Shown: positions 33,145-50,561, counted from the first letter of the stretch. The stretch: DNA of 64,000 bases from an uncultured delta proteobacterium (GCA_963706575.1 CAVPNL010000001.1:352001-416000), one strand, 5' to 3'. Numbers and translations are program-made. The notes: a model not told the origin generated them from the sequence alone.

Positions 33145-33564
33145 CTATGTCAACCGGGAAGTTCGGTAGGAGCCGACCACTGCGTCGGCTTCAATTTCCA
33201 CCAGATGATCCGGACGGGCCAGGGCCTTTACTTCTGCCATGGTAATCACGGGCCGGATCTCTTTAAACCATTCAGAGTAAGCTTTAATGTATTCCTGCCC
33301 CCTGGTGATATCGGTGACGTAAAAACGGACTCTGACCACATCCGAGATTCTGGCACCGGCCCGCTTCAACACCGCTTCAATTTTCTGTAGAATTATTTTG
33401 GTTTGCAGATAGGCATCGCCGACGCCCTCTACCTCACCCTCAGCGTTGGTGGTCGTTGTTCCGCCCACAAAGACCATATTTCCGACCCTCACCGCGCGGC
33501 TGTAACCGGCTTTTTCCTCAAAAGGTGCACCGGATGAAAAATTTTGTCTTTTTAATAAATCCAT
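33145..33564 (-). CDS. Rid family imine/enamine deaminase
   Basis: GYSRAVRVG, RPVITMAEV, LVEIEADA. Confidence 0.9.
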   Translation of the reverse strand: MDLLKRQNFSSGAPFEEKAGYSRAVRVGNMVFVGGTTTTNAEGEVEGVGDAYLQTKIILQKIEAVLKRAGARISDVVRVRFYVTDITRGQEYIKAYSEWFKEIRPVITMAEVKALARPDHLVEIEADAVVGSYRTSRLT

Positions 33565-33625
33565 TGCTCGGCTGCCGCCCTTTCAGTCATACAATCCGGA
33601 TTCCTTATCCTCTGACTTTGAAATC

Positions 33626-35086
33626 TTATGCCCTTTTTTCAGTCCCATAGCGGTATCGCAGATCATCGGTCATCACGCAGCGTCGAATCTGGGTAAATAT
33701 TCTGGGCCGGGTGTGTCCTTCGCCATTGGTGGCGATATGAAATGAAACAAATCCTTCACCGGTAACGCCAACGCCGCCGAGGCCGCAGGCCCCATTTTTA
33801 ACAAATGAGGCACAGCGCGCTTTGCTGGCCATTTTCTGGATGTTGGTAATGCTGTTGGAATGGATGGCCATGGTGTGGCCCATATTTTGCTCGGCGGCCA
33901 ATGCCCATTCGATGGCCTGATCGACATTCGCACAACGGACCAGTGGCAGGACCGGCATAATCTGTTCGGTCCAAACCAGGGGATGATTTTGGTCGGTTTC
34001 CAGAATGACGATTTGGGCATCGTTTCCCACTTCCAGGCCGATGGAGTTGAGTATGAATCCCGGCGTTTTGCCGATAAAGTCCATATTAATAACGCCCGGT
34101 TCAGCCGGTCCTTTGACTTCCTTGAAGATATGTTTGAGCAGCTTTTTGCCCTGATCCGCAGAAATTTCGTAGGCGCCGTATTTTTTTAGATGTTCTTTAA
34201 GTTGTTCCGCCGCGGATTCAACGACAAAAATTTCCTTTTCACTGGCGCAGGCGGTACAATTTGAAAAGGAAGCGCCCTGGATAATGCATTTTGCTGCACG
34301 GTCCAGATCCGCTGTTTCGTCAACCACAACCGGAGGATTACCGGGCCCACCGGCGATAACGCGTTTGCCGGTTGAGGTCGCAAAGTCGACCACCCCATGG
34401 CCGCCGGTTACCGCAATCATGCCGACGTCTGGATGGGTCATCAGCTCTTGGGCGGAGGGCACCGTCGGTTCTTCCAGGCAGCAGATGCAATTTGGCGGTC
34501 CCCCGGCGTTTACGATGGCATGGTTCAGATCCCGAATGACGCGGGCGGATACCTTCTTAGTTTTGGGGTGAGGATTATCGATTACCGTGTTGCCGCCGGA
34601 CATCATCATAATGGCATTGAAAATTATGGTGGGAGCGCCGTTGGTGACCGGATTAACCGAGGCAATCACGCCGATCGGCAGTCGTTCTATAATGGTGACA
34701 CCCTTATCACCGGCATAGACCTCGGGAGTTAGATCCTCCATTCCCGGCACATTGCAGGCAGAGCGGACCTTGGCCACATTGTCGTCCGGTTTGCCCAGCC
34801 CGGTTTCTTCAAATTCCATGCGGCCGTATTCATCAGCATTGGCCAGACCGGTTTCGCGAATGGCCTGGATGAACCTCCGGCGGTCTTCAACCGGTGCATC
34901 CAACAGTTTTTTCTGAGCGCTGACAGCCGCATTTATGCAGGTTCCCATGTCCCGGAAAACGCCGTCGCCTGCAGCCGGCTTTTTTTTAGAGGGATTTTCC
35001 ATCTGATGGTCATCGATATTCTGCTCGGCAAGCTTTGCAATAACCTTTTCCACGATTTGGGTGACAACTTTTTCATCAAAATCCAT
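33626..35086 (-). CDS. CoA-acylating aldehyde dehydrogenase (EutE/PduP family) with N-terminal encapsulation peptide
   Basis: PVTN, GPGNPPVVVDETAD, GASFSNCTACASEK, MPVLP, HTMAIHS, RRCV; N-terminus FDEKVVTQIVEKVIAKL. Confidence 0.92.
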   Translation of the reverse strand: MDFDEKVVTQIVEKVIAKLAEQNIDDHQMENPSKKKPAAGDGVFRDMGTCINAAVSAQKKLLDAPVEDRRRFIQAIRETGLANADEYGRMEFEETGLGKPDDNVAKVRSACNVPGMEDLTPEVYAGDKGVTIIERLPIGVIASVNPVTNGAPTIIFNAIMMMSGGNTVIDNPHPKTKKVSARVIRDLNHAIVNAGGPPNCICCLEEPTVPSAQELMTHPDVGMIAVTGGHGVVDFATSTGKRVIAGGPGNPPVVVDETADLDRAAKCIIQGASFSNCTACASEKEIFVVESAAEQLKEHLKKYGAYEISADQGKKLLKHIFKEVKGPAEPGVINMDFIGKTPGFILNSIGLEVGNDAQIVILETDQNHPLVWTEQIMPVLPLVRCANVDQAIEWALAAEQNMGHTMAIHSNSITNIQKMASKARCASFVKNGACGLGGVGVTGEGFVSFHIATNGEGHTRPRIFTQIRRCVMTDDLRYRYGTEKRA

Positions 35087-35140
35087 GTGGCTTCTCTTTC
35101 CTTTTAAATAAAAATCGCTTCGCGTCTCGTTACACAGAGA

Positions 35141-36064
35141 TCAGCTGTCGTTATAATAATCCTTATTTAGCGGATCATAATCTGCCAGCTCTTCTTTTTC
35201 CTCTGAAAAGAAATCCTGCCGTCTTCTGACACCGTCTTCAATTCTCGACAGGCGCTCGGCGGTGGCATCTTTGTCCGTGTATGCGATTTCATGAACCAGG
35301 GCACCTAAAAAGGTAATGATATGTGAAAAGGGATCAATAAATGAAAAGCCTTCCATATCGACAACGACATAGTGATCCGCCAGATTAATTATGGGTGACT
35401 TCAAGGCGTCGCTCAAGCAAACCACCTGGGCCTGATACTGTTTGGCGTACTCAATGATTTCAATGGCCCGCATGGGATAGCGCGGAAAGGCAATCACAAA
35501 CAACAGCAAGGACTTACCATGCACCGCGATGTGATCCAGATTGTCGGAGGTATAAGCCGTGTCGATCAGCACCCCTTCTTTGATTTTTTTTAAGAGATAT
35601 CCCAAATAAAAGGCCAGGGAGGCTGAGGCTTTATAGCCGACCACCAGGACCGATTCTGCCTGAAAAATCATTTGCGCAAGATTTTTTATCTCTGCTTCGG
35701 AAACCGATTTCACCATATTTTCCAGGTTCGTTACCGTGTTTTGGCTGTACGCGTTTAACGTGTTAGTTGTTTTGGTTTCCGGGTCAACTTTCAGCAGCCT
35801 TTCTACACTGGTCAATTCATCGCGCAGCATTCCCTTAAGATATTGCTCAAATTCACCGTAACCGTTGAAACCCAAATCCATCACGAAACGGGTGATGGTG
35901 GGCTCACTCACCTGGCATTTTTGAGCGATTTCCTTGGCGGTTGTCAAAAAAAGCCGTTTGTAATCCTCCATCATAAAGTCCGCCACCCGGCGTTTTTTGG
36001 GTGACAGGCTGGGACGAATGCGGACAATTTGTTCAAAAAGCTCTTTTCTGACGGTTTCAATCAT
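35141..36064 (-). CDS. RpiR/MurR family transcriptional regulator
   Basis: LSPKKRRVADF, VSEPTITRF..LGFNGY, SIS domain FPRYP. Confidence 0.92.
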   Translation of the reverse strand: MIETVRKELFEQIVRIRPSLSPKKRRVADFMMEDYKRLFLTTAKEIAQKCQVSEPTITRFVMDLGFNGYGEFEQYLKGMLRDELTSVERLLKVDPETKTTNTLNAYSQNTVTNLENMVKSVSEAEIKNLAQMIFQAESVLVVGYKASASLAFYLGYLLKKIKEGVLIDTAYTSDNLDHIAVHGKSLLLFVIAFPRYPMRAIEIIEYAKQYQAQVVCLSDALKSPIINLADHYVVVDMEGFSFIDPFSHIITFLGALVHEIAYTDKDATAERLSRIEDGVRRRQDFFSEEKEELADYDPLNKDYYNDS

Positions 36065-36087
36065 ATTTTAGCTCATTTTATATTTTT

Positions 36088-36708
36088 CTAGTGCTCACGC
36101 CCGGACAAGGCAGCCAGGGCTGACTCTGCCGCCAGTTTACCACTGAGGACATCCGATGGCTCACCGGCGAAGTAAACCCGGCCGCTGGCACCATATACCG
36201 TGACATGATTGAGGGTGATATTGGCTGCCTTTTCGGCTTCATTGGCAGCATATCCGGCATATCCGGCCGGGACGACTTCCAGAATATAAAGGGTTTCATC
36301 GCTTAGCGATAGACTGGCAGCCCGAAACCGGTTTACGATTTGGCTCATATGCGGATCGATTCGTTCGACGGTCTCGGTGGCTAGGATCTTGGGTTTAAGA
36401 CGGTCGGTTTCTTTGCAACCCAGATAATCCAGGATAACCTCGCCGGCCTGTTTCACATCGGCGGGCGAATCGGCGTGAACCTCCAGCATGCCATAGGTTC
36501 TTTCCACTACCAGCGCCCCGGGCCGCACATTGGACCTTTTCATGACCGCATCGGTGATTGAGTTAATCTCAATGCCCGGCGCGATTTCCACAAAAAGGGC
36601 AGCCTGACCGGTTATCGGATAATAGCCGCGTGAGGTCGAGCCGATATAACCGACCATCTGTTTTTGTAATTGATCGATGTAGGCAAATGCTCTAAGATCT
36701 ATCTTCAT
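36088..36708 (-). CDS. BMC-T shell protein, CcmP/CsoS1D-type (double-stacking)
   Basis: LRAFAYIDQLQ, VEIAPG, VERTYGMLEVH, ANEAEKAA, GASGR. Confidence 0.9.
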   Translation of the reverse strand: MKIDLRAFAYIDQLQKQMVGYIGSTSRGYYPITGQAALFVEIAPGIEINSITDAVMKRSNVRPGALVVERTYGMLEVHADSPADVKQAGEVILDYLGCKETDRLKPKILATETVERIDPHMSQIVNRFRAASLSLSDETLYILEVVPAGYAGYAANEAEKAANITLNHVTVYGASGRVYFAGEPSDVLSGKLAAESALAALSGREH

Positions 36709-36711
36709 AAT

Positions 36712-37917
36712 TTATATGCTCTTCAGCCATTCGCGTTTGTTCGGACAGACAGCCGTTATGGTGGTACAGGCTGCATTTCCCTGACAGGCGCACTCTTTGT
36801 CGCCGCCCTTGCTGAATCGGCCGTAACAGAAATCGGTAATGGGTATCGACGGTTGACAATCCATGATCAGTTGGCTGATCAGCCGGCCGATTACCGGGGC
36901 CAATCCGAAGCCGTGGCCGCTAAAGCCGGTGGCAAAAACAAAACCGGGGACTTCTTCTGCAAAGCCTAACACCGGCAGGGCGTCTGACATCTGGGCGATA
37001 AGGCCTGACCACATCCGAATCACGTTTAAATTCTTCAGTATCGGGAAATAATCAATAACCATCTCGGAAATCGCCGGCCCGATGAAATGAAACAGCGGCT
37101 TGCCTTCGCGATGGATGAATTGTTCGGTGCCGACAAATCCTCCCCAAAAGAAGGAACCGTGTCCGGTTTGCCGGCCGTAAAACAACCCTTTGGCATGTCC
37201 GACCATCTGCTGAAATAACGGAGGGTAGGGCTCAGTAATCAGGGCCTCGGAAAATACAGGTCGCATCGGCAAATCCAGGCCGGCCATGTTGGCCACTTTT
37301 CGTCCGGCTACACCGGCGGCATCCACCACCAGGTCAGTTTCAAAAATGTGCTTATCGGTTACCACACCGCTAATTTTACTTTTTTTTAGTCGAACCTCCA
37401 TGACTTCTTCATGCGTAAAAAACCGGGCCCCGAGATTCTTGGCCTTTTTAAAAAAGCCGTAAGTGACCAAAAACGGATTGACATGACCGTCCGTGGGGCA
37501 GAAACTGGCACCGAGAACCTTCTCTCCGATATGAGGATTAATTTCCAACACCTGTTTGCGATCCAGCATCGTCAGCTCGAGTCCAACAGTCTTTTGGTTT
37601 TCTACCGACTGACGCATGGTTTCCAGCTCTTCTTCTGAAGTGCAGAGCCGCAGATTGCCCGCCCTTACATATTCCACATCCATATCCAGTTCTTCATGGA
37701 GGTGGCCGTATATCTGTATGCTTTCCATGGCCAACGGCATTTCTTTAAGATTGCGTGCAGACTGGCGTACACCACCGCCATTGCTGCCAGATGCTTCTCC
37801 ACCGATGTCTGATTTTTCAATCACCACCGGTTTCAGGCCTTCTTTGGCCAGATTGTAAGCGATGGCGCAGCCCATCACGCCTCCGCCGATTATAACTGCA
37901 TCTGCTTTTTCAGGCAT
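36712..37917 (-). CDS. FAD-dependent amine/amino-acid dehydrogenase (sarcosine oxidase beta / proline dehydrogenase beta-like)
   Basis: IIGGGVMG, ASGSNGGGVR, DGHVNP, WSG, GFSGHGFGLAP. Confidence 0.9.
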   Translation of the reverse strand: MPEKADAVIIGGGVMGCAIAYNLAKEGLKPVVIEKSDIGGEASGSNGGGVRQSARNLKEMPLAMESIQIYGHLHEELDMDVEYVRAGNLRLCTSEEELETMRQSVENQKTVGLELTMLDRKQVLEINPHIGEKVLGASFCPTDGHVNPFLVTYGFFKKAKNLGARFFTHEEVMEVRLKKSKISGVVTDKHIFETDLVVDAAGVAGRKVANMAGLDLPMRPVFSEALITEPYPPLFQQMVGHAKGLFYGRQTGHGSFFWGGFVGTEQFIHREGKPLFHFIGPAISEMVIDYFPILKNLNVIRMWSGLIAQMSDALPVLGFAEEVPGFVFATGFSGHGFGLAPVIGRLISQLIMDCQPSIPITDFCYGRFSKGGDKECACQGNAACTTITAVCPNKREWLKSI

Positions 37918-38007
37918 CTGTTCTCCTGTTTGAAACGTCAGGAATTCAATATTCGCTATTCGTTATTCAAAATCTTTTAAAACAATTAAAGATGTGACAA
38001 TTAAAAA

Positions 38008-38688
38008 CTAGCTATTGGCAAATGCGGACAACCTCAGCGGCCGTACCGGCCCTCTGGCGGTTGTCGGCTCTATTTCGGCAAGGCTCAATCCCAATTCTTC
38101 AGCCAGGATCTGGCTTACAAGGCGCTGACAGGTTTGCCCCTGGCACAGCCCCATTCCGGCCCGGGTGATCCGTTTAATGCCGTTTAGGGTTTGCATGCCA
38201 TTGCGAATGGCGTCTTTAATTACGCCTTTGGTAATTTCTTCACAGCGGCATATGATCATATCATCGTCATCCGATGGGATTTGTCGGGATTCAGTCGATG
38301 TCTCCTTTTTACGATTCGGTTTATCCGGTTCACGCCCTTTCAGCTGTTTAATTCGTTCGACAACCCGATTGGCAAGGGCCTCGATGGCTTCTTCTGAGAA
38401 TTGGCCACCCGATATGCCCGGCGCATGGCTTTTCGATGGTCTGTTAGCAGAGGTAGGCCGGGTAGATCGGTGCATCTTTGCTTTTTTACCAGCCGGCTGT
38501 TTAGCCGGCTGAATTGCCGCAGTCAGCGATACGGCTCCTGGAGGCGTGGTTTTGATGTGGAGCTGATGTTCTTTAATCAAATCAGCGGCGGCGGCAGATA
38601 GAATTGCACCCTCGGGAACCTCAATTTCTTTGTTAGCGCCATCGATGATTTGTTTTACCTGCTGTGAGAATATGAATACACGGGCCAT
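38008..38688 (-). CDS. BFD-like [2Fe-2S] subunit with encapsulation peptide and EutQ-N-like module
   Basis: ICRCEEIT...GMGLCQGQTC...RGPVRP; internal amphipathic helix SEEAIEALANRVVERIKQL. Confidence 0.85.
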   Translation of the reverse strand: MARVFIFSQQVKQIIDGANKEIEVPEGAILSAAAADLIKEHQLHIKTTPPGAVSLTAAIQPAKQPAGKKAKMHRSTRPTSANRPSKSHAPGISGGQFSEEAIEALANRVVERIKQLKGREPDKPNRKKETSTESRQIPSDDDDMIICRCEEITKGVIKDAIRNGMQTLNGIKRITRAGMGLCQGQTCQRLVSQILAEELGLSLAEIEPTTARGPVRPLRLSAFANS

Positions 38689-38700
38689 TTAGTTCTCCCT

Positions 38701-39318
38701 TTATGGTGTTCGACCTTTTATCTTTCCAAGTGTTTCGACGACTTTTTGGGCTGCCGCCTGAATTTCCGACTCGGTGCCGGCCATATAGATGCGTCCGGAA
38801 GCCCCAAAAAAACGGATATCAACCAGCCGGACACCGCAATGCTTCTCAGCTTCATTGGCAGCGATGGATGAATAGGCCGCCGGTGTGACCTCCAGCAGAT
38901 AGACATCGTCACCGCCTAAAATCAACATTCCCTTGCTGTTGCGGTTGATAATCACCGCCTGGTATGGATCAATTTTATTGATGATGCTGGTTGCCAGAAC
39001 ACTGGGCGCCAGACGTTCTTCCTCTTTGAGCCCCAGCTCATCCAATATCATGCTGCCGGCATGCAGAACTTCTGCCTGTTCAAACGAGTGGATTTCCAGC
39101 ATGCCATAGCGTCTTTCAACAATCATTTCCCCGGGTTTTGAATTGGTGGCCTTGAGCGCAATATCCGACAAGCGGTTGATCTCGACGCCGGGGACGACCT
39201 CCACGAAAAGGGAAGCCATGCCCTCTACAGAAAGAAAACCTCGACAGGCGCTTGCAAACAAAGATGCAAACTGGGGTTGCAACCGATCCAGATAGCAATA
39301 GGCTCTGAGTTCAGCCAT
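38701..39318 (-). CDS. Second CcmP/CsoS1D-type BMC-T shell protein
   Basis: ELRAYCYLDRLQPQ, VERRYGMLEIH, ANEAEK, GASGR. Confidence 0.9.
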   Translation of the reverse strand: MAELRAYCYLDRLQPQFASLFASACRGFLSVEGMASLFVEVVPGVEINRLSDIALKATNSKPGEMIVERRYGMLEIHSFEQAEVLHAGSMILDELGLKEEERLAPSVLATSIINKIDPYQAVIINRNSKGMLILGGDDVYLLEVTPAAYSSIAANEAEKHCGVRLVDIRFFGASGRIYMAGTESEIQAAAQKVVETLGKIKGRTP

Positions 39319-39360
39319 TCATTTGTCTCCTTGGTAGCAGTTTAATATCTCCATCTAATG

Positions 39361-39516
39361 TTGATAATCTCGTAAAAAGTTAGAAAAGCAGCTGTTTACG
39401 AGTGTGTTTTGTATTTGGTGTTTAGTGTTTAGTATTCTAACATGCCGATATAGCATCATCTATTTCATGCCAAACACCAAACACTTGATGAATTCGGCTT
39501 TTTACGAATTCATCAA
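39361..39516. mobile_element. MITE-like element
   Basis: Imperfect terminal inverted repeats TTGATAATCTCGTAAAAAG / CTTTTTACGAATTCATCAA; internal 7-nt-period repeats. Confidence 0.6.
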
Positions 39517-40349
39517 TGTTCAGTCTTAATAATTTGAATCGAATACTCCTTCGCTAAATCCCGGGCCAATGGTGTCACGATTCCCCCGGGTGCCAGCGTG
39601 ATTGCATTCTGGTTTTCAGCAACGGCCATATAAATTACTTTGGCTGTAACCAGTTTTATCGCACCGGTGCTATTTTCTGTTTGCGTTTTAATTGTTGCGG
39701 GTGAAGGGATGGGGACGGTTTTGGCTGGTTTAATACCGGATAACATTTTCTGAAATGTTGAATGTAATTGATCTGTTGGACAAAAAACCATCCCGAAGCT
39801 CTCAAGTTTTCTTAAAATTTGGTCGATTTCACTGCGCAGGGCTTCATTGGCAAGGATGTCACACACCAGAAATCCGTCGCTGGCAGCCAGAACCCGTTTG
39901 CCCTGCAGCAATGCGGTGAACACGATACCGGACTCTTGATCATCACAGATCAGGCTGGCGATTTTGGCGGCTGTTTTCAGACAGAAGGTGGGTAAAACCA
40001 GTATATCGGCCTTTTGCAAAGCCTTCTCCAACCCCGCCGGTTTGACCGTATCCAAAATACATTTGATGCCGGCGCCCTCTTTGACATCGGCGCCGCAAAC
40101 CCAGGAACGGGCAGATTCAACCGTATAGACGCTGGACCGGCGGGCGGTCTCTTCTATTTTTTGGATCTGTGCAAGTGCCTGATCCAATTTGCGGACACCG
40201 GCATGAAAAATATTTAATACCGCCGGCCCTTTGCCGGGGGAATCTACAGGTCGGGACGGCGGGTTGCGCGATGATCCTTTGGGCAAGCCGGTTTCGTTGA
40301 GAACCTGTCGAACGATTTTGCTGATTTCTTTTTTGAGCTTATCCGTCAT
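39513..40349 (-). CDS. BMC-associated flavoprotein-like protein with N-terminal encapsulation peptide
   Basis: LKKEISKIVRQVLNE; ADILVLP..KTAAKIA..ALLQGKRVLA; C-terminal GIVTPLARDLA. Confidence 0.75.
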   Translation of the reverse strand: MTDKLKKEISKIVRQVLNETGLPKGSSRNPPSRPVDSPGKGPAVLNIFHAGVRKLDQALAQIQKIEETARRSSVYTVESARSWVCGADVKEGAGIKCILDTVKPAGLEKALQKADILVLPTFCLKTAAKIASLICDDQESGIVFTALLQGKRVLAASDGFLVCDILANEALRSEIDQILRKLESFGMVFCPTDQLHSTFQKMLSGIKPAKTVPIPSPATIKTQTENSTGAIKLVTAKVIYMAVAENQNAITLAPGGIVTPLARDLAKEYSIQIIKTEH

Positions 40350-40388
40350 AATTTCCTTAAAATCTCCGGCAAACGGCTGCCGAATTCA

Positions 40389-41228
40389 TCACGCCTGCAT
40401 ATTGGCGGTCGCCGTATCCCGGCAGGATAACGCGATGCCGAAGGGGGTGATGAATTGAGGAATATGCGGCCGAAACGTTTCCATACCGATGTTTTCGGCG
40501 ACGATATCTGCAAAGCCCCGCAATTCACATGTTCCGCCCACCAGACAGACTTTTTCCAGATTATCGAATTCTGCTAAATAGGAAGCCGCGATACTGGCAA
40601 TTTTTTCGATAACCGGCTGAACGATTGCCAGAACTTCCCCGTTTTTCTGGGGATTCGTTTTTATTTTCTCAGCCTGTTCGTAGTTGATTTTTTGATTGCC
40701 CGCCAAAACGAGAGACAGATGAACACCTCCTGTGGCTTCGTCATTGGAATAAATGACTTCTCCATTTTTGATAACGGCAACTCCTGTTGTGCCGCCGCCC
40801 ACATCGACAATGGCCCCGTTTTCGATTTTAAGGACCTGATTGGCGGCTGTGGGCTCATCCAAGACATTGAGCACTTCCAAACCGACCCCCTCCAGGATAT
40901 GGGTGGTGGTTCTAAGGTTGGCGGATTCGGTCTGCGGCGGGTAGGATGTCGCGCCTCTTTCGATCGGCACAGGGCTGTGCTTTCTGATTTCTTCCATCAG
41001 CTCGCGGACGGTGTTCAAGGCCCCGACATAATCGACAATCATACCGCTGCGGGCGACTTCGGTCCGGCGCATGTTGGCCGCCCGCGGCGTGCCGGTTTCA
41101 TCGATAATGATGGCGATGGTTTTATAGGTTCCCACATCAACACCGGCATATAACTGCTCGGCACCGGCAAAATTCCAGTTGTCCGGCCGGTTTACAAGTT
41201 GGCTGAGCATGTTGATCGCATCCGTCAT
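40389..41228 (-). CDS. eutJ: EutJ actin/Hsp70-like BMC protein
   Basis: GVDVGT, VDYVGA, DEPTAAN, DVGGGTTG, EATGGVH, LVGGT, TPFGIA. Confidence 0.93.
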   Translation of the reverse strand: MTDAINMLSQLVNRPDNWNFAGAEQLYAGVDVGTYKTIAIIIDETGTPRAANMRRTEVARSGMIVDYVGALNTVRELMEEIRKHSPVPIERGATSYPPQTESANLRTTTHILEGVGLEVLNVLDEPTAANQVLKIENGAIVDVGGGTTGVAVIKNGEVIYSNDEATGGVHLSLVLAGNQKINYEQAEKIKTNPQKNGEVLAIVQPVIEKIASIAASYLAEFDNLEKVCLVGGTCELRGFADIVAENIGMETFRPHIPQFITPFGIALSCRDTATANMQA

Positions 41229-41779
41229 AAAATACTCCTGGAAATTTCATCAGTGGGCGAGGGGATTACCACATGGCTCAAAACCAACCCGGTGCCTTCC
41301 AGAATATCAATGCCGGCTTCTACCGCCGCCTCTACCGAATCCACACTGCCGGTTAAATATAAAAATGACTTTCCGCCCAGGCCGGTGGCGCAACGTATTT
41401 CAATGATTTCGACATTCGCCGCTTTAACTCCGGCATCGGCGGCCATAATCGAAGAGGCCACCGAGAATGTTTCAATAATTCCCAGTGAATCGACGCGTTT
41501 AATCCTGGTGGTCGCGGTGATGGCTGCAAATATGGAAGCATGCACATTGGGAATCACGAAATCATCTACCAGAAATTCCCCGGCCACCGCCTTGCCCACT
41601 TCATTTGCGCGTTCGATAGAGTCCACATCGCCGGAAACCATCACCATGTATTTTCCGGCGCAAATGGGTTGGGCGAAAACCAGCTCGACATCGGCCGCTT
41701 TCAGCATTTCATCGCCGGCCGCCACGCCCTTGGCGATACTGTTCAGTTCGATCATGGCAATTGCTTTGAGCTCTTCCAT
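41225..41779 (-). CDS. PduT-like tandem BMC shell protein
   Basis: IELNSIAKG..DEMLK, PICAGKY, GLGGK, VIPSP. Confidence 0.9.
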   Translation of the reverse strand: MEELKAIAMIELNSIAKGVAAGDEMLKAADVELVFAQPICAGKYMVMVSGDVDSIERANEVGKAVAGEFLVDDFVIPNVHASIFAAITATTRIKRVDSLGIIETFSVASSIMAADAGVKAANVEIIEIRCATGLGGKSFLYLTGSVDSVEAAVEAGIDILEGTGLVLSHVVIPSPTDEISRSIL

Positions 41780-41791
41780 TTTTTATATCCG

Positions 41792-43129: not shown

Positions 43130-43419
43130 TTTTTCTTCACAGGCGCGTCGTCGACCAGTTCTAGATTATCAGCAATACCGATAACGACTGCGTCTATCGG
43201 GATCGGTGTCCCCTTGTTTAGTGCTTGCATGGCCGGTGCACCCCGGGTGACAATTACCATTTCACCGAATCCGGCGCCGACTTCATCGGCAGCAACCAGG
43301 ACGTTGCCGGCCGGTTTGAGGTCCTTTCCCAGAGGCTGGATGAACAATAGCCGTAACGCGGATATCGTATCCAGCTTCTTGGTGGACCAAACGTTTCCGA
43401 TAACTTTAGCAAGTAACAT
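43126..43419 (-). CDS. BMC-P vertex protein (EutN/CcmL)
   Basis: MLLAKVIGNVWSTKK, VAADEVGAGFGE, IDAVVIGI. Confidence 0.95.
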   Translation of the reverse strand: MLLAKVIGNVWSTKKLDTISALRLLFIQPLGKDLKPAGNVLVAADEVGAGFGEMVIVTRGAPAMQALNKGTPIPIDAVVIGIADNLELVDDAPVKKK

Positions 43420-43469
43420 TCTGATGACCCTCCAGCCTCCGAGTAAACATTAACTTTCGATCGGGATTT

Positions 43470-43781
43470 CTATTTAAGATGTTCGGCTTCCTCGATGGCT
43501 TTAAGGCTGGCTTTGACATCAGCGATATCGCCAAAAATTCCGATCATGGTTACATGCTGCGGGCAAATCCCCTTCAGGTCGAAAACACGCACCGAAGCCG
43601 CTTTTTCGGCAACATCAGCGGCTGCGATCATGTCGACCACTTTTCCCTGAATGAGTCCAACAGCTGAATAAGGGACCTCAGCCTCGGATAAGATTTTTTT
43701 CCCGACGGCACCAACACGCTGTCTGAGAAATTCAAAGACTCCCGGGGAAGGATGGGAAATTAAATGGGTACTAAATGCCAT
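43470..43781 (-). CDS. GrpU-like BMC-H shell protein (GxCPQ Fe-S motif)
   Basis: AVGLIQG, AADVAEKAA, GICPQH, GDIADV; ATG at 43781 after GAGGT. Confidence 0.85.
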   Translation of the reverse strand: MAFSTHLISHPSPGVFEFLRQRVGAVGKKILSEAEVPYSAVGLIQGKVVDMIAAADVAEKAASVRVFDLKGICPQHVTMIGIFGDIADVKASLKAIEEAEHLK

Positions 43782-44024
43782 GATAGACCTCTCAGCATTC
43801 TGTTTTTTGCGAATCGTAAGCTGCGCTGCGGCGCTAAAATTATTGAATTCACCTTTTGATTCGGCATTTTCAGTGCTATTGATGACATGCGCTGATTTCA
43901 GCCGATTGCATGCAGACAAACTCCGGCCGATCTGGTCACTGGCCACGACACATTATTTTTCACGGCGTCACCGACCAAGCCGCACGCGCTTGCAGACCAA
44001 TCCGCTTCAGAACTTCCCGGAAAA

Positions 44025-44306
44025 TTATTCTTCGGCTTTCGGAATGGTATACTCGATGTCGCTGTGCGGTCTGGGGATAACGTGCACCGAAACCAGTTCG
44101 CCGACACGTTCGGCCGCTGCGCCACCGGCATCCGTGGCCGCCTTGACGGCACCGACGTCGCCGCGCACAAACACGGCAACCAGACCGCCGCCGACAAACT
44201 CTCTACCGACAAATCGTACTTTCGCTGCTTTTACCATTGCATCGGCGGCCTCAATCGCGCCGGCCAGACCTTTGGTTTCCACCATACCTAATGCTTGTTC
44301 AGCCAT
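44025..44306 (-). CDS. Major BMC-H shell protein (PduA/EutM-like)
   Basis: [34 protein letters not shown]. Confidence 0.97.
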
Positions 44307-44330
44307 TCTTGTTTACCTCCTGATTATAGA

Positions 44331-44834
44331 TTAGCGTTTCAATCGAATTGCGCGGGCCGTCATAGACCAGTCTCTGGGGATTTCTATGATAACCGTTGCG
44401 GTTTGATCCATTTTTTTCGTTTGTTTGACTGCGGTAACGACCGCTTCTCCTAATTCCTGCCCTGCTCTATCCAGGGCGATCACGGTTTCTCCTTTTTCCG
44501 GCAAGGGCCGATATTCATAAGGCATCTCGAGCGCCGCCATATTATCCGGCAGGCTTTCATCGACAATAAAGATGGCCTGGCCGGGGCAGATGGGCAAACA
44601 GCTGCGGCAGCCCACACAGTTATCTTCCGTTAGCACGGGAGGGGTGGTGATATCCTCACCGACGGTAATGGCATCATATTTACAGCTGGCTTCACAGGGA
44701 TTGCACGGAATGTCTTCCAGACATTCGAGCACGGCCACCGCACCCATGCGGCGCCGCGTCTCCGACGGTATGCCTTTGCCGTTTTTTAGTTCTTTTTGCG
44801 AAAGGAATCCGGTTTTGGTTGAATCAGCGGCCAT
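44331..44834 (-). CDS. 4Fe-4S ferredoxin subunit of the dehydrogenase complex
   Basis: ECLEDIPCNPCEASC, CVGCRSCLPICPGQAIF, PYEYRPLP. Confidence 0.88.
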   Translation of the reverse strand: MAADSTKTGFLSQKELKNGKGIPSETRRRMGAVAVLECLEDIPCNPCEASCKYDAITVGEDITTPPVLTEDNCVGCRSCLPICPGQAIFIVDESLPDNMAALEMPYEYRPLPEKGETVIALDRAGQELGEAVVTAVKQTKKMDQTATVIIEIPRDWSMTARAIRLKR

Positions 44835-45928
44835 TATGCTTGCGCTTTCATTGTGTCATTCAGGTATTGCTTGGCTTTGCCCCTGGCTTCTCCATGGCTG
44901 CCGCTGCGCAAACCGACCATGCTTTTAAGTTGCACTTCGCGCTGCTTTAAAAACTCAGGCTCATCCAGATAACCGAGTCTGCAGGCAATTGCCAGTCCGG
45001 CGATACGGCCTTCGATAATTGCCGTGCTGGCCTCTTCAATGCCGGATGCATCACCGGCCACGTAAACGCCATTAACAGATGTTTCCTGGTTCAGGTTATG
45101 TGACGGTACCTTGCCGCCTAGCACCGGAGAGTCGACGATCTGGCAGCCGGTCATTCTGAGCAACTGGTTCATGGGGTTGAGGCCGACGGCGATACATACC
45201 GTATCGACATCGAATTGTTTCTCCGTACCGTGTATCGGTTTCCAATTTTCATCCACTTCAATTATCGTGGCGCCCTCAACCCGTTCTGTGCCATGCGCTG
45301 CCTTAATCGTGTGTGACATAAAAAAAGGGACTCCGGTCCGGGCGATCTTGGCAGCGTGCACAGCGTAACCGCCGATTTCGGGTGCGGCATCGATAACGGC
45401 TGCAACCTGGCAGCCGGCTTGCAGCATCTGGTAGCTGACAATGACACCGACATTGCCCGATCCCACCATAAGAATGGCTTTGCCCGGTCGGATGCCATGG
45501 ATATTGGCCATGGTCTGAGCGGCGCCGGCGCCGATGACCCCCGGCAGGGTCCAGCCGGGGAAGGGGATCATGTTCTCTGATGCGCCGGTGGCCACCAGGG
45601 TACACTGGGCCTTTACGTGCTCAATGCGATCCCGGATCAGGACGTTGAGGGCGCCGTTTTCGTAGATACCTAAAACCACTGAATTCAAAGAAACTTCAAC
45701 GTTCAGTTCCCGGGCGTCGCTCAGGAAACTGTTGCCAATATCAAATCCGCGTTCCTTGGCGTGGTGCTCCTGGGAGCCGAAAAACTTGTGGATCTGTTTG
45801 AAAAGCTGACCGCCGGGGCGGTCGTTTTCATCATAGACGACAACCTCAACGCCGTATTTAGCAGCTTCGACGGCGGCTGCCAGTCCGGCGGGACCGGCGC
45901 CGACGCATACCATTTCACATCTTCTCAC
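44834..45928 (-). CDS. FAD/NAD(P)-dependent oxidoreductase (sarcosine oxidase alpha N-part / proline dehydrogenase alpha-like)
   Basis: GAGPAG, GGQLFKQIHKFFGS, ATGASE..PFPGWTLPGV, GSGNVG, AGD; no GcvT domain. Confidence 0.9.
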   Translation of the reverse strand: MRRCEMVCVGAGPAGLAAAVEAAKYGVEVVVYDENDRPGGQLFKQIHKFFGSQEHHAKERGFDIGNSFLSDARELNVEVSLNSVVLGIYENGALNVLIRDRIEHVKAQCTLVATGASENMIPFPGWTLPGVIGAGAAQTMANIHGIRPGKAILMVGSGNVGVIVSYQMLQAGCQVAAVIDAAPEIGGYAVHAAKIARTGVPFFMSHTIKAAHGTERVEGATIIEVDENWKPIHGTEKQFDVDTVCIAVGLNPMNQLLRMTGCQIVDSPVLGGKVPSHNLNQETSVNGVYVAGDASGIEEASTAIIEGRIAGLAIACRLGYLDEPEFLKQREVQLKSMVGLRSGSHGEARGKAKQYLNDTMKAQA

Positions 45929-46248
45929 GGCTTGCCTCGTGATAAATCCGGCCCGTTGCCATGTTGCGTTTCAACCACCATGCCTTCTCTTAGCGGTTCG
46001 ATACACGTTCGAATATTGGGTATGCCGTCCACCACCATGATACAATCGGTGCAACGGCCAATGGCACAAAACACGCCCCGGGGCTCATTTCGTTTGGTGG
46101 TGTAACGGTGGATCAGCACCCCGTTGCTTCGCAGCGCAATCGCAATCGGTTCGCCGGCAAAACCTTCCATGGTTTTGCCGTCAAAGGTGAAGCGGACCTT
46201 GGGACCTTTTTCGAACACTCCCAGAATCGGATGTTCTTCAATGCGCAT
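45925..46248 (-). CDS. (2Fe-2S)-binding subunit
   Basis: GEPIAIAL, PRGVFCAIGRCTDC, RTC. Confidence 0.9.
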   Translation of the reverse strand: MRIEEHPILGVFEKGPKVRFTFDGKTMEGFAGEPIAIALRSNGVLIHRYTTKRNEPRGVFCAIGRCTDCIMVVDGIPNIRTCIEPLREGMVVETQHGNGPDLSRGKP

Positions 46249-46283
46249 TATCAAGAATCCAATAAAAATTTATATTCATCCGA

Positions 46284-47594
46284 CTAACAGAAACCAAACA
46301 TTTCACCAAAAGTATAATTGCTGCCCACCAGAGGGATACCGGTCATGGCGCAGGCTTCAAGGGTCAAGGACCGCAGGTCTTCTCTTTCCATGCTGTGCAA
46401 TTTGGTTTTGCCGGCGGCTTTGGCAATAATGACGGCTTCATTCGTCAGGGCCTGAATATAGTTCGCAACTCGTTGGGCGGCTTTTTCGATATCGAGCCGT
46501 TGTCTTAATTGAGGATCCTGGGTTCCGATCCCGTAGGCGCAGCGGCCTTCGTGACACCGTAAACAAACCACACATCCCATGGCAACCATGGCGCCGGTGC
46601 CGATGGCAACCGCATCCGCCCCGATGGCAATGGCTTTGGCAACATCGGCGCCGTCTTTGATGCCGCCTGAGACAATCAGGCTGACTTCGTCCTTCACACC
46701 CATGTCTTCCAAGGCGCGCACGGCCTGGACCAGTGCCGGCAGGGTCGGTATTCCCAGGTTGTTCGAAGCCACCACCGGCGCAGCGCCCGTGCCGGCTTCG
46801 CCACCGTCGATGACAATACCGTCTATGCCCGCTTTGACGGCAATTTTTACGTCTTCCCAGACTCTACCCGCGGCTATTTTTAAAAATATGGGAATCTGAC
46901 TGTCGGTAATGTCCCGCAGTTCTTCCATTTTCAGGCATAGATCATCGGCTCCGAAAATATCGCCGTGGCGGGGGTGGCTGTGTAAATCAATGCCTTCCGG
47001 CAGCTGCCGGAAAGCGGCGATTTCCTTGGTGATTTTGCTGGCCATCAAATGGCCGGCCAGACCCGGTTTGGCGCCGATGCCCACAATGATTTCGAGTGCA
47101 TCGGCAGCCTCGATGTTGCGCAGGGTAAATGCCATACGACTGGGCAGAATTTGGACCACCTGCTTATAGGAATTGTCTCTTTCTTCAGGCAGCAAGCCGC
47201 CCTCACCGTTGTTGATGGATGTGCCGACGATATCGGTGGCTTTTGCCAGCGCCGTTTTGGCTTCTTTGCTCAGCGCGCCGTAAGACATTCCGGAAATCAA
47301 AATAGGCGTTTCAACGACCAGCGGTTTTTTGGCAAAACGGGCTCCCAAGACGGTCTGGGTTTTGCAATCCTCGCGATAGGTGTCGATGGACATTCGCGTC
47401 AGCTGGGAGGGCAGAACCAGTAAATCGTCAAAATTGGGGTATTTTCTGGGGGTGCCGCAGCCACGGATGCGGTGTTTGCCCATCTGGGCCTTATATTTGA
47501 CTTCTGAAATCGATTCCGGGTTCCAGACCCCTCTTTGAACATCTTTGACCCGAGGCGTTTTATCGGTTGCTTTTTTTTCGTCTTTTTTTGCCAT
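46284..47594 (-). CDS. FMN-binding glutamate-synthase-family protein, N-methylglutamate synthase C-like (MgsC/GlxD)
   Basis: FDDL, YREDC, LGARFAKKP, GMSYGALS, GAKPG, SGGIKDGADVAKA, CxxCxxC..C. Confidence 0.85.
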   Translation of the reverse strand: MAKKDEKKATDKTPRVKDVQRGVWNPESISEVKYKAQMGKHRIRGCGTPRKYPNFDDLLVLPSQLTRMSIDTYREDCKTQTVLGARFAKKPLVVETPILISGMSYGALSKEAKTALAKATDIVGTSINNGEGGLLPEERDNSYKQVVQILPSRMAFTLRNIEAADALEIIVGIGAKPGLAGHLMASKITKEIAAFRQLPEGIDLHSHPRHGDIFGADDLCLKMEELRDITDSQIPIFLKIAAGRVWEDVKIAVKAGIDGIVIDGGEAGTGAAPVVASNNLGIPTLPALVQAVRALEDMGVKDEVSLIVSGGIKDGADVAKAIAIGADAVAIGTGAMVAMGCVVCLRCHEGRCAYGIGTQDPQLRQRLDIEKAAQRVANYIQALTNEAVIIAKAAGKTKLHSMEREDLRSLTLEACAMTGIPLVGSNYTFGEMFGFC

Positions 47595-48295
47595 TATTCC
47601 TGAGCCCTTTGTTTATGGGTTGGTTTAAAAAGGACGTATTCGTGGCGGCCATAAATTTTTGGAACAATGCTTTGAAACTCGTTGACATCCTGATCGATCC
47701 CGTATTTTTGAAACAGGGGCTTTAGCACCTTTTTTTCTTTTGGATCGATGGGAACGATGCGGACGTTGCCGCCCAGCTTTTTTTCGACCGCAGGATCCAT
47801 CACATGAATAACGCCGTCATACATGGATTCCCCGATACCTTCGCCGACTTCTCCTAAAACAACGATTCGGCCGCCGAGCGTCATCTTTCCGGTCCAGCGT
47901 CCGACACTGCCGCAGACAATCAGGGTGCCGCCTTTCATGCCCCAGCCGGCTCGGCTGCCGCTGTTGCCCTTGATCACCACAGTGCCGCCGACCATCGAAG
48001 GCGCCGCATTGCTGCCGGTGTTCATTTCGACGATGATTTCGCCGGCCGTCATGTTGTCGCCCGTATACCAGCCGGTATTTCCCTCCACCACAATGGTCGG
48101 CCCTTCAAGAAATCCGCCCGTGTAAAATCCGGTGCTGCCGTGAACGGTAATCGTTCCCTTTCCGATCAAGGCCGTGGCGAAGTTGTGCATGGAATGGGGG
48201 TTGTCAATTTCAATTTGGTCTTCGGTTTTAATCAATTCCTTAAGCTTGCGATTGACTTCTCGGGAGCTCATTTTTTTTAAATCTAAACGGACCAT
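47594..48295 (-). CDS. GXGXG-domain protein, N-methylglutamate synthase B-like (MgsB/GlxC)
   Basis: Beta-helix repeats (VEGNTG, IKGNSG..GWGMKGG); start overlaps the end of the mgsA-like gene. Confidence 0.85.
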   Translation of the reverse strand: MVRLDLKKMSSREVNRKLKELIKTEDQIEIDNPHSMHNFATALIGKGTITVHGSTGFYTGGFLEGPTIVVEGNTGWYTGDNMTAGEIIVEMNTGSNAAPSMVGGTVVIKGNSGSRAGWGMKGGTLIVCGSVGRWTGKMTLGGRIVVLGEVGEGIGESMYDGVIHVMDPAVEKKLGGNVRIVPIDPKEKKVLKPLFQKYGIDQDVNEFQSIVPKIYGRHEYVLFKPTHKQRAQE

Positions 48296-49183
48296 ACCTG
48301 CACGCCTCCTGGATCCATCTCCGTTGCATAAACATCGGAGACAATTGGGGTTAAACAAATTTGCTCAGACCCAAAGAGCACGGTGGCATCACCTTTTTCA
48401 AAATACAACATCGGCTTTATGCCCAGCCGATCTCTCAAGGCACCCAGCTGATTCTCCGTGCTGACAAGCAAGGTGAAGACACCGTCGAATGTATCCAATC
48501 CCAGGTTAAGGGCCTGTTCCAGATCCAATCCTTTTTCCTTCATGTGATAGGCAATGAAATGGGCGGCCATTTCCGAGTCATTGTTGGTTTTGAAGCGGAT
48601 CCCCCAGTTTTGCATTTTGCGGCGCATGTTGAAGTAATTGGTGAATTGTCCGTTGTGCACAATTGCCAGCTCCGGATAAAGGTAGGACACAAAGGGATGG
48701 GCAAAATTGATGTTTTCCACGCTTTCGGTGGCCAGGCGTACATGGCCGATTCCGTGGCTGCCTTTGACTTCCGGAATTTTGTGGCATTGCCGCAATTCTT
48801 CAGCGGAGCCCTCATCCTTGTATATCTTGATGCGTTTACCGATGGAGTGGACACACAGATTTGGATGCGAATCAATTGCCCAATTCAAATCGCTGATTTT
48901 ATGCCGGATCCATATCGATGGACGCCTCGTAAAAGGTGAAAATGCCCTGTCCCTGATAGATCCGGTAATCAGACGGCGTGCCGAATTTTTGAATAATTTC
49001 TTCAAGCGCCTGCTGATAACTTGCCTCCGTCAGGGAAACGCGCAGGTCGATGGTGTCGCGGTTTTCGTAAATGGCCACGCCGGTGGCATCTTTGCCCCGG
49101 TGGATGAGCTCATTTAGCATGTTAATCAGATCATTGCCCAGGGTAGGGGAGTCTTTGGTAATAATGCCTGCAATTCCACACAC
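48283..49183 (-). CDS. Class II glutamine amidotransferase, N-methylglutamate synthase A-like (MgsA/GlxB); one frameshift (~48905)
   Basis: MCGIAG, HRGKDATG, GHVRLATES, AHPF, HNG, NDSE, RDRLGIKP. Confidence 0.85.
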
Positions 49184-49220
49184 AACACACCTCCCATTTT
49201 TGACGGCTTATCCGTGAATG

Positions 49221-50561
49221 TTACAAGTGATATGAATATTCATTAAATTCCCAATCGGTGACGTGAGTCCGGAAGCGTTCAAGTTCGTGTTCTTTAAGGG
49301 CCAGAAAGGCCTGAATCAATTCCGGCCCTAATGCTTCACAGAGGACGGTGTCTTCCTTCAGGTCCTGCAGCGCATCACGCAGGTGGAAGGTGACGGTTTC
49401 ATAAGTTCCGGGTTCAGATCCGTAAATATCGTCCGGTGCAGGTTCGCCGGGATCAATCTTATTTTGGATGCCATCCAGGCCAGCGGCCAATACGGCAGCC
49501 ATCGCCAGGTACGGGTTGGCCGATGCACAGGGCGCCCTGTTCTCCACGCGGGTGCCCGAACCTCTTTCAGCGGGTACGCGGCAATACACCGTGCGATTGT
49601 CCCAGCCCCAGGCCAGGTAAAATGGACAAAATGCACCCAGCACAAAACGGGCGTAAGAATTAATCGTAGGCGCCAAAATGGCCGACATCCCCCTGGCATG
49701 GACCATCTGGCCGCCCAGAAAGTGGCGCAACTGGTCGGATACGCCATCTTTTCCTTTGGGATCGTCAAATAGATTTTTCCTGGACTTCGGATCACTGACA
49801 GATACGTGAATGTGGTACCCGCTGCCGCCGCTTTCGGTCTTAGGACGTCCCATGAACGTCAGCAGAAGGTTATTCATGGCAGCGACTTCTTTGCATACAT
49901 ATTTGAAGGTGAAGGTCTGGTCGGCCATTTTGAGGGCTTCTTCGTACTTCCAGTTCACTTCATACTGGCCCGGGAAGAATTCATGGTTTAAGTAGATGAT
50001 TTCAAGGCCCAGTTCGATAAAGGTATTCTGAAGCAGTCGCAGCATACCTTGTGGGTCAACAAGCGGGTTTACCTGGTAGACGCAGGAAGGGCTGGTATTG
50101 TAAGACTGGCCGTCAGCATCGCCACCCTGGTTGAAAAGAAAAAATTCGAGCTCCGAGGCTGCTACGGGGTCCAGTTTCAGGTCCTGATATTGTTTTATAA
50201 TGCGCTGCAAAACATAACGCGGATCCATGGGCAGGGGTTCTCCGTCAGGCCCATAGGTGTTGCCGATGAAACGAGCAGTGCCCTCCAAATGCGGCAAGAC
50301 AGCAAAGGTATTCAGATCCGGTTTGACCGTCATGTCGCGCCATTGGATTTCATCTCCCACCCCGGAGCCCATGGCCACATCATTGGCAAAATCAATCGCA
50401 TAGGTGGCCTGAACGTGCTGCACACCTTCTTCGATCATTTCTTCCAGTCGACCGGCCGGAATGAGCTTGCTGCGACATATACCGTGAAGATCAGGAAAAT
50501 CAACGCGCAGGGAATCCACATTTGCCGCTATAATTCTCTCCTTAATCTGCTTAAGGTCCAT
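49221..50561 (-). CDS. Glutamine-synthetase-like gamma-glutamyl-amine ligase
   Basis: DLHGICRSK, ELEFFL, HEFFPGQYE, GSGYHIH, WGWDNRT, RVENR, NPYLA. Confidence 0.88.
   Translation of the reverse strand: MDLKQIKERIIAANVDSLRVDFPDLHGICRSKLIPAGRLEEMIEEGVQHVQATYAIDFANDVAMGSGVGDEIQWRDMTVKPDLNTFAVLPHLEGTARFIGNTYGPDGEPLPMDPRYVLQRIIKQYQDLKLDPVAASELEFFLFNQGGDADGQSYNTSPSCVYQVNPLVDPQGMLRLLQNTFIELGLEIIYLNHEFFPGQYEVNWKYEEALKMADQTFTFKYVCKEVAAMNNLLLTFMGRPKTESGGSGYHIHVSVSDPKSRKNLFDDPKGKDGVSDQLRHFLGGQMVHARGMSAILAPTINSYARFVLGAFCPFYLAWGWDNRTVYCRVPAERGSGTRVENRAPCASANPYLAMAAVLAAGLDGIQNKIDPGEPAPDDIYGSEPGTYETVTFHLRDALQDLKEDTVLCEALGPELIQAFLALKEHELERFRTHVTDWEFNEYSYHL

Follow-up and report, generated by a model that had tools for sequence, protein, structure and literature searches.

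We have analyzed a bacterial microcompartment (BMC) locus in a stretch of 64,000 nucleotides from an uncultured delta proteobacterium (GCA_963706575.1 CAVPNL010000001.1:352001-416000), referred to below as the window. Between positions 33145 and 50561 lie 21 co-directional genes on the minus strand, among them those for a ligase resembling glutamine synthetase (GS), for a class II glutamine amidotransferase (GATase) subunit, a GXGXG subunit and a flavin mononucleotide (FMN)-binding subunit (these three are called the trio here), for a five-subunit flavin/Fe-S dehydrogenase, for a CoA-acylating aldehyde dehydrogenase (AldDH) and for six shell proteins. The cluster belongs to sediment-dwelling relatives of sulfate reducers. 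The organelle type is already catalogued, and the chemistry proposed for it resembles the known N-methylglutamate pathway. From sequence comparisons we propose, with modest confidence, that this enzyme set degrades a primary amine, probably one larger than methylamine, via an N-alkylglutamate, and that the resulting aldehyde is trapped in the shell. We are evenly divided on a broader claim, in which the organelle is a metabolosome whose signature enzyme belongs to a new class. That enzyme would be an N-alkylglutamate dehydrogenase of five flavin/Fe-S subunits, enclosed in the shell and supplied by an ATP-driven glutamate relay in the cytosol. An amine could then serve marine sulfate reducers and a worm symbiont as a source of both nitrogen and acyl-CoA, with no need for B12, glycyl radicals or pyrrolysine, and the route would amount to an Fe-S branch of the N-methylglutamate pathway that works anaerobically. 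The literature searched held no description of such a branch and no paper tying a microcompartment to GS-like or MgsABC-like genes.

The window locus matches MIC6, a catalogued type. The catalogue (Sutter et al. 2021, PMC8217296, Supplementary Data 2) lists three MIC6 loci from anaerobic Deltaproteobacteria with no assigned function. In the portion of that source available to us, the MIC6 enzymes are an AldDH with an N-terminal encapsulation peptide, a PF04324 protein and a PF01266 oxidoreductase with a C-terminal extension of ~30 amino acids containing four cysteines; the shell set consists of two BMC-H, a BMC-P, two BMC-Tdp of the CcmP clade, PduT and a GrpU-type protein. For MIC6, neither the text nor the hidden Markov model (HMM) table mentions a GS, GATase, GXGXG or FMN subunit; the locus diagrams may show them. 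In the HMM table PF00120 stands under MIC2 only and PF01645 is absent. The same portion names MIC2-7 among the many types that have an AldDH but no known source of aldehyde. Because its shell set, enzymes and peptide extensions match this description, the window locus does not represent a new type. It has the AldDH with its peptide, the PF04324 protein, the PF01266 protein with the four-cysteine tail (found in 64 of 67 complete orthologues), the PduT-type BMC-T, the GrpU-type protein, one BMC-P and two BMC-Tdp of the CcmP clade, a clade assigned here through the NF053796 match and not through the catalogue's HMMs. One of the two standard BMC-H genes is in the window; a second (377 bp) is present in two contigs that are 95-96% identical (L064/L065), is kept in most relatives and is missing in some.

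The domain calls come from Pfam and NCBIfam profile searches of the window proteins. An earlier, sequence-only reading of the window had described one co-directional cluster with six shell genes, and every part that it named was found on the minus strand in its place. Its suggestion of an unrecognised BMC type did not survive the comparison with the catalogue, as far as the available portion goes. The gene that it called a flavoprotein exists, but its identity comes down to a weak eut_hyp match. It had overlooked a frameshift in the GATase gene, the lack of a second BMC-H gene, and the TRAP transporter and molybdoenzyme genes after Rid, which part of the related loci conserve. Gaps between the genes are below 100 bp throughout, apart from two of 243 bp and 194 bp, and no further shell genes were found elsewhere in the 92% complete genome. 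We take the GxCPQ motif as the mark of GrpU. The genes are as follows.

49221..50561, minus strand: GS-like ligase, predicted gamma-glutamylamide synthetase, neither canonical GS nor GmaS (PF00120)
48283..49183, minus strand: class II GATase subunit (MgsA/GlxB-like) with N-terminal Cys, frameshifted (PF13522/PF13537)
47594..48295, minus strand: GXGXG subunit (MgsB/GlxC-like; PF01493)
46284..47594, minus strand: FMN-binding glutamate-synthase-type subunit (MgsC-like) with a CxxCxxCx4C Fe-S motif (PF01645)
45925..46254, minus strand: 2Fe-2S subunit (Fer2_4) of the flavin/Fe-S dehydrogenase (PF13510)
44834..45928, minus strand: FAD/NAD(P) pyridine-nucleotide oxidoreductase subunit (Pyr_redox), SoxA N-terminal-like, no folate-binding domain (PF07992; TIGR01372 at positions 168-500 only)
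44331..44834, minus strand: 4Fe-4S ferredoxin subunit (Fer4; PF12838/PF00037)
44025..44306, minus strand: BMC-H hexamer, EutM/PduA-like (PF00936, NF012018)
43470..43781, minus strand: GrpU-like BMC protein (GICPQH; PF00936), placed between BMC-H and BMC-P
43126..43419, minus strand: BMC-P pentamer (PF03319)
41792..43129, minus strand: PduS/MNdh NADH dehydrogenase (PF01512+PF13375+PF10531)
41225..41779, minus strand: PduT-type BMC-T with pore Cys (ICAGK; two PF00936, TIGR02526)
40389..41228, minus strand: EutJ chaperone-like ATPase (TIGR02529 and NF011660, both above cut-off)
39513..40349, minus strand: eut_hyp/flavoprotein-like protein (TIGR02536 weak, 51.8 bits against a cut-off of 152.6)
38701..39318, minus strand: first BMC-Tdp, CcmP-like gated trimer (NF053796, E 1.4e-70)
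38008..38688, minus strand: BFD [2Fe-2S] subunit with a BMC-specific N-domain and an internal helix resembling an encapsulation peptide, residues ~97-116 (PF04324/PF17806)
36712..37917, minus strand: FAD amine/imine dehydrogenase catalytic subunit (DAO family) with a C-terminal four-cysteine extension, proposed signature enzyme (PF01266)
36088..36708, minus strand: second BMC-Tdp, CcmP-like (NF053796, E 3.4e-70)
35141..36064, minus strand: RpiR-family regulator (PF01418+PF01380)
33626..35086, minus strand: CoA-acylating AldDH of the PduP type with N-terminal encapsulation peptide (NF011927 525 bits, cut-off 403; PDB 5jfl, E 2.6e-100)
33145..33564, minus strand: Rid-family protein (PF01042; below the RidA cut-off)
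29774..32816, minus strand: tripartite ATP-independent periplasmic (TRAP) transporter dctPQM, accessory and probably linked (PF03480/PF04290/PF06808)

The FMN gene clusters with shell genes far beyond chance. Through this gene 52 genome loci were collected, eight of them too short to judge; shell genes are present in 39 of the 44 informative loci (FMN identity at least 77%) and absent from five (67-75%). The ligase occurs in 28 of the 30 loci with enough upstream DNA. A scan of 301 genomes of the order, in which five candidates per genome were scored, found the MIC6 trimer (at least 81% identity) in 19, about 6%. The FMN gene is present in 18 of these 19, and all 18 carriers of the FMN gene have the trimer. 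The two genes lie within 8 kb on one contig in 12 of the 18 genomes and on separate contigs in six; in the single trimer genome without the FMN gene, the trimer sits on a 1.9-kb contig. Nine more genomes have trimer matches of 42-50% only, and no FMN match. Among long-enough metagenome loci, the AldDH gene follows the DAO gene in 27 of 32; three of the five misses belong to a shuffled arrangement and two to a decayed copy. The shuffled locus in G686 keeps all parts, its ligase adjoining AldDH and its trio separating BMC-H from BMC-P, while in the decayed copy (L108/L109) the shell, BFD helix, DAO tail and AldDH were lost together. The sequence-only reading had tied mgsABC-like genes to the shell genes, and these counts, with the complete G686 locus, bear out their co-conservation.

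The decayed copy (L108:3014-4959 and L109) retains the FMN, Fer2, Pyr and Fer4 genes; its BFD gene is fused to a remnant resembling the start of a BMC-H, and one trimer is a stub. In a Clostridia bin, the ligase, the trio and Fer2/Pyr genes are present in L146 (G344:C189) and L062, short contigs that carry no shell gene.

The ligase scores below the cut-offs of the models for GlnA (TIGR00653, 320 against 429 bits), GmaS (TIGR03105, 313 against 470) and PuuA-type enzymes (257 against 650). The Asp50 loop (FDGSS) and Glu flap (GYEAP) characteristic of type I GS are replaced in all 43 ligase homologues, with Ala, Val or Cys at Asp50 and Phe or Leu at the flap Glu. According to the available portion of PMC7948447, GmaS has likewise lost these two residues (Ala48 and Trp300 in RhGmaS) and uses Asp177 in catalysis. 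The ligase shares this loss, but Asp177 is itself replaced in 43 of 43 homologues, by Asn in 41 and by Ser and Ala in one each. Judged by these scores and residues, the ligase is neither GS nor GmaS. A housekeeping GlnA (659 bits) and a split glutamate synthase (GOGAT)-like cluster are encoded on contig C6 of the same genome.

The trio resembles MgsABC in order and composition. The GATase subunit matches GlxB of R. etli at 47%/36%, the GXGXG subunit matches GlxC of R. etli at 31%, and the FMN subunit matches rhizobial GlxD/MgsC at 47-49%. As in MgsABC, a GATase-II subunit with Cys1, a GXGXG subunit and an FMN subunit follow the GS-like gene, and the same order is found in the canonical glnT/gmaS-mgsABC clusters of A. 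caldus and C. metallidurans. The FMN subunit falls outside the MgsC clade, in a clade of its own (support 0.999; trees of this subunit and of DAO were built with FastTree). All 61 members of this clade carry CxxCxxCx4C, a position at which the MgsC proteins of R. etli, C. metallidurans and SAR324 read AYDDWHEG. The Fe-S cysteines and the GAKPG, Arg and GTGA motifs of GltB are retained. For N-methylglutamate synthase the reaction proposed, in the portion of PMC6237917 available, converts a gamma-glutamylamide and 2-oxoglutarate to N-methylglutamate and glutamate; we infer that the trio is a paralogous, externally reducible N-alkylglutamate synthase. Four loci (L037, L144, L156 and L158) contain extra paralogous trios, 47-53% to MgsC or to the window FMN subunit and with a Cys pattern of their own; some of them are arranged in tandem with the trio of the MIC6 type. 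This points to a family of N-alkylglutamate synthases that handle different amines.

These properties bear on a reading in which the shell holds an amino-acid or amine dehydrogenase acting on the free substrate, while ligase and trio form an extra GS/GOGAT pair that recaptures ammonium. The retained GltB features of the FMN subunit would suit it, as would the best PDB matches of the ligase, which are GS I-alpha enzymes, and the lack of an encapsulation helix in ligase and trio. We nevertheless regard it as improbable, given the replaced GS motifs in all 43 homologues, the GlnA and GOGAT-like set already available on C6, and the patchy distribution of the trio (18 of 301 genomes), which is tied to the shell. 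The ligase motifs and the housekeeping set thus uphold the view taken in the sequence-only reading that this is no ordinary GS/GOGAT. Absence of PF04898 was considered as a marker against GOGAT and dropped, because the housekeeping split GOGAT-like cluster lacks that domain too.

A different use of the ligase would follow Puu-type protection. The ligase would gamma-glutamylate a diamine or amino alcohol, the dehydrogenase would oxidise its far end in the shell, and the AldDH would make acyl-CoA. Removal of the cap and recovery of the nitrogen would fall to the trio or to a class I GATase. PuuB is a DAO-family enzyme, a class I GATase is found in 18 of the loci fetched, and one locus has a deacetylase-family hydrolase together with an APC permease. 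However, many loci, that of the window among them, lack the class I GATase, whereas the reductive FMN/Fe-S trio is nearly universal, and the ligase falls far short of the gamma-glutamylputrescine synthetase model (257 against 650 bits). We consider this reading unlikely.

The DAO subunit has its best PDB match in 1y56_B (E 3e-56), which we take to be a subunit of an archaeal proline dehydrogenase; its relatives presumably include the archaeal dye-linked proline dehydrogenase, opine dehydrogenase and HcnABC-type flavoenzymes. It is distinct from MgdABCD and heterotetrameric sarcosine oxidase (TIGR01373, 136 against 529 bits). Since SoxD, SoxG, GcvT, purU and folD have no match in the MIC6 loci fetched for neighbour-gene comparison, a free aldehyde would be expected as the product; purU flanks all three canonical methylamine clusters. 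The genome also has two Fer2/Pyr/BFD/DAO clusters beside aldehyde:ferredoxin oxidoreductase genes (G000:C1:159545-164844 and G000:C14:72260-75800), both without ligase or trio.

The location of the enzymes was approached with a profile built from 24 N-terminal AldDH helices and a threshold score of 20. The threshold is reached by 28 of 29 AldDH, a circular result as these supplied the seeds, and by 85 of 89 BFD orthologues, at an internal helix, compared with none of seven shell-less BFD forms. It is also reached by 20 of 61 eut_hyp-like proteins (the window's own lies below) and by none of 39 ligases, 52 GATases, 47 GXGXG subunits, 58 FMN subunits and 81 DAO subunits. In a genome-wide scan AldDH and BFD ranked at the top of 5,840 open reading frames (ORFs), which is circular for both; neither of the genome's glycyl-radical genes was in the top 25. 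The flavin/Fe-S dehydrogenase is therefore likely to be the aldehyde-generating cargo, as the sequence-only reading had proposed in naming a flavin dehydrogenase as the signature enzyme, and the loading steps of ligase and trio probably take place outside the shell. None of the locus genes encodes a B12 lyase or glycyl-radical enzyme, again as it had noted. A profile of the BFD N-domain matches a small C-terminal domain, for which Pfam has no model, in 43 of 61 eut_hyp-like orthologues; in five loci (L028:744-1292, L120, L121, L125 and L149) this domain is fused to a NifB/NifX-type PF02579 domain.

The AldDH has the catalytic residues Cys280, Glu374, His404 and Thr405 in 30 of 30 sequences; PMC5311937, in the portion available, names catalytic residues but offers no list for the pocket. 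In RpPduP the first-shell residues of the acyl pocket include Pro327 and Val329, according to the part of PMC6298115 available; in the alignment these positions are Ala/Ala in 26 of 30 AldDH, and an extra Cys277 and His450 are invariant. Because of these substitutions, the acyl site may be roomier. An AlphaFold model places the encapsulation helix at residues 5-22; being unreliable around the active site (pLDDT <50 at 276-281 and 425-460), it was not used for pocket claims. A second acylating AldDH, 51-60% identical to the first, stands in tandem with it in six loci (L070, L086, L099, L105, L165 and L168), with the pocket motif NCTPCS in four of them, and possibly serves a second aldehyde.

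Shell-less cousins of the locus in SAR324, a proteobacterial bin and Chloroflexi keep the ligase, the trio and a related dehydrogenase. Their DAO subunit is 34-38% identical to that of MIC6, and GGxRQSAR is common to both. All six shell-less loci that extend far enough end in an aldehyde:ferredoxin oxidoreductase, and MIC6 has an acylating AldDH, so that the same front end appears to feed two unrelated aldehyde sinks. This arrangement also bears on the direction of the pathway. The host is an anaerobe, and in principle the reactions of acylating AldDH and of flavin/Fe-S enzymes can run backwards, so one might suppose that an aldehyde is made by reduction of acyl-CoA and then coupled to glutamate, giving an N-alkylglutamate or amine as an electron sink or solute. 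Against this, the ATP-dependent ligase would commit the amine inward, the loci come with uptake systems and amide hydrolases, and the shell-less version, including that of marine SAR324 and gammaproteobacterial-type genomes, ends in an oxidoreductase for aldehydes; the reverse direction seems very improbable to us.

As to the substrate, the closest variant of our proposal follows the same route for methylamine, with N-methylglutamate yielding formaldehyde that is trapped in the shell as formyl-CoA. The gene order equals that of gmaS-mgsABC, and in the JGI annotation 3 of the 120 FMN homologues listed are named 'methylamine-glutamate N-methyltransferase subunit C'. Moreover, formaldehyde would be free, because the dehydrogenase has no folate-binding domain, and frmA/frmB stand beside the ligase in two of six shell-less loci. 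Those two loci, however, belong to sister taxa, the FMN clade is separate from MgsC, and the AldDH acyl pocket has smaller side chains. The lack of Asp177, the lack of purU, folD and GcvT, this pocket, and a SAR324 genome (G342) that has a canonical methylamine cluster (GmaS at 646 bits, MgsC at 86%) besides its shell-less cousin locus all disfavour the methylamine/formyl-CoA option on the sequence comparison, and we think it fairly unlikely. Accordingly, of the earlier idea that an amine is loaded on glutamate and oxidised inside the shell, the dehydrogenase as cargo and the co-conservation stand, whereas methylamine is disfavoured and loading is probably external. Three MtmB-family methyltransferase genes of the genome (G000:C12:17256, C4:159929 and C13:86217) have no in-frame stop and are thus pyrrolysine-free; they say nothing firm on methylamine.

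Candidate substrates are ethanolamine, C2-C4 alkylamines, omega-amino acids, taurine and diamines. Unrelated amide hydrolases occur in different loci, which fits an amine released from an amide: Amidohydro_3 in ten loci, the class I GATase in 18, and a CN-hydrolase, a C45 protein and a deacetylase-family protein in a single locus each, some of these loci repeating one organism. TRAP transporter genes follow Rid in many loci (63-98% identity). The binding protein keeps the Arg of the RV motif known in SiaP, which presumably binds a carboxylate, so that the TRAP system may import an anionic amine or N-acyl amine. Transporter and amidohydrolase homology was rejected as a guide to the substrate, the PDB and plasmid matches being too distant (DctP 26-31%), and an Embleya/Streptomyces lead was dropped, with no trio or dehydrogenase nearby. 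After the TRAP genes, at 27106-29364, lies a molybdopterin oxidoreductase gene with counterparts of 81-88% identity in some MIC6 loci (L069, L088 and L090); a 39-40% paralogue is found upstream of the ligase in other loci.

The sequences themselves show gene content, co-conservation, motifs and where the helices occur; the reactions, the place of each enzyme and the substrate are deduced from these. Taken together, the proposed N-alkylglutamate route would run as follows. The GS-like ligase would consume ATP in the cytosol to convert the amine to its gamma-glutamylamide. The trio would then free the amine and join it reductively to 2-oxoglutarate, giving N-alkylglutamate and glutamate, with electrons entering via the retained Fe-S cluster. 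N-alkylglutamate would pass the large, gated CcmP-like trimers into the shell, where the five-subunit FAD/Fe-S dehydrogenase, anchored by the BFD helix, would cleave it to glutamate and free aldehyde, and the encapsulated PduP-type enzyme would convert the aldehyde to acyl-CoA. PduS and PduT, described as an NADH-recycling electron exit in the available part of PMC11626177, would export the electrons together with GrpU, in place of an alcohol dehydrogenase. The net effect would be an ATP-driven transamination that moves the amine nitrogen to glutamate, followed by oxidation of the aldehyde.

Several observations weigh against this proposal. Trio and shell are present in one genome (G023) in which no ligase was found and the AldDH lies 1.4 Mb away. 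The related genomes in the co-occurrence counts are not independent samples. The helix threshold was set after the scores had been seen, scores as high as 20.8 were obtained with shuffled sequences, and the threshold is also passed, at an internal helix, by 9 of 25 Rid proteins. No PduL-type phosphotransacylase (PTAC) was found in the 92% complete genome, nor was EutB, and the lack of PduL leaves CoA recycling unexplained. A substrate common to MIC6 and the shell-less forms is not proven, in view of the low DAO identity between them and of an unrelated paralogue from the window's own genome that falls in the same clade. Finally, the frmA/frmB genes of the two sister SAR324 loci are formaldehyde-detoxifying.

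The assembly of the locus calls for some comment. The GATase gene is broken by a frameshift near 48903-48905 in the present assembly. The contigs of three of four runs (X1, X3 and X15) are one base shorter at this site, and a length of exactly 299 amino acids is shared by 30 of 52 homologous ORFs, so the frameshift is probably an assembly error. The dctP leader is frameshifted near 32773, where contigs of runs X1 and X3 have an extra base. Neither of these single-base frameshifts is seen in public contigs of the same population, which suggests indel errors of assembly. Between the eut_hyp-like gene and the BMC-Tdp gene, an imperfect inverted repeat of ~160 bp (39360-39517) has 21 BLAST matches in its own genome, shows a spike in depth in each of the four runs, and looks like a repetitive extragenic palindrome (REP) or miniature inverted-repeat transposable element (MITE). 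Contigs from RNA libraries span 28 and 26 of 30 bins, but they stem from relatives and may be DNA. A promoter scan gave chance-level results (19 versus 20.8).

If correct, the proposal would give MIC6 its first testable chemistry, a complete, assayable pathway whose candidate signature enzyme represents a class that is not listed for microcompartments, and the soluble enzymes could be tested in E. coli with no need to cultivate the host. Amine nitrogen and carbon would then have a further anaerobic route, both in coastal sediments and in the Olavius delta-1 symbiont (L015), and N-methylglutamate chemistry would turn out to have paralogues for other amines.

Among known systems, the catalogued MIC6 loci are the nearest relatives of the window locus. 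In the available portion of the catalogue, the gene order BMC-H, GrpU, BMC-P is that of locus tags B1H13_00905-00915 (grpU-like1), and the hosts are likewise anaerobic and deltaproteobacterial. The window has lost one of the two BMC-H genes; the loci described here add the ligase and trio as a core and a second encapsulation-like helix, on BFD, and raise the number from three to at least 39 genome loci. MIC2, as described in the same portion, shares a PF00120 GS-like gene, an AldDH and BMC-Tdp, but has PF02866 and 6PGD-like enzymes, a minimal shell and an AldDH lacking an encapsulation peptide, and occurs in other Proteobacteria. The PDU, EUT and GRM metabolosomes have in common with the window locus a PduP-type AldDH, PduS/PduT, EutJ and encapsulation peptides; in contrast to them, Pfam and NCBIfam searches show no B12 lyase, glycyl-radical enzyme or alcohol dehydrogenase in the window locus. 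The N-methylglutamate pathway (GmaS, MgsABC, MgdABCD) has the same order of ligase and trio and a flavin dehydrogenase of the sarcosine oxidase superfamily. Here, however, the ligase lacks Asp177, the FMN subunit carries an Fe-S motif, the dehydrogenase consists of five Fe-S/FAD subunits with no folate-binding domain, SoxD or SoxG, and an acylating AldDH in the shell, without purU or folD, is the predicted aldehyde sink. The Fer2/Pyr_redox/Fer4/BFD/DAO architecture is similar to that of archaeal dye-linked proline dehydrogenase, opine dehydrogenase and HcnABC-type enzymes, from which the present system differs in its glutamyl-loading module, its shell, the MIC6-specific four-cysteine tail and the encapsulation-like helix.

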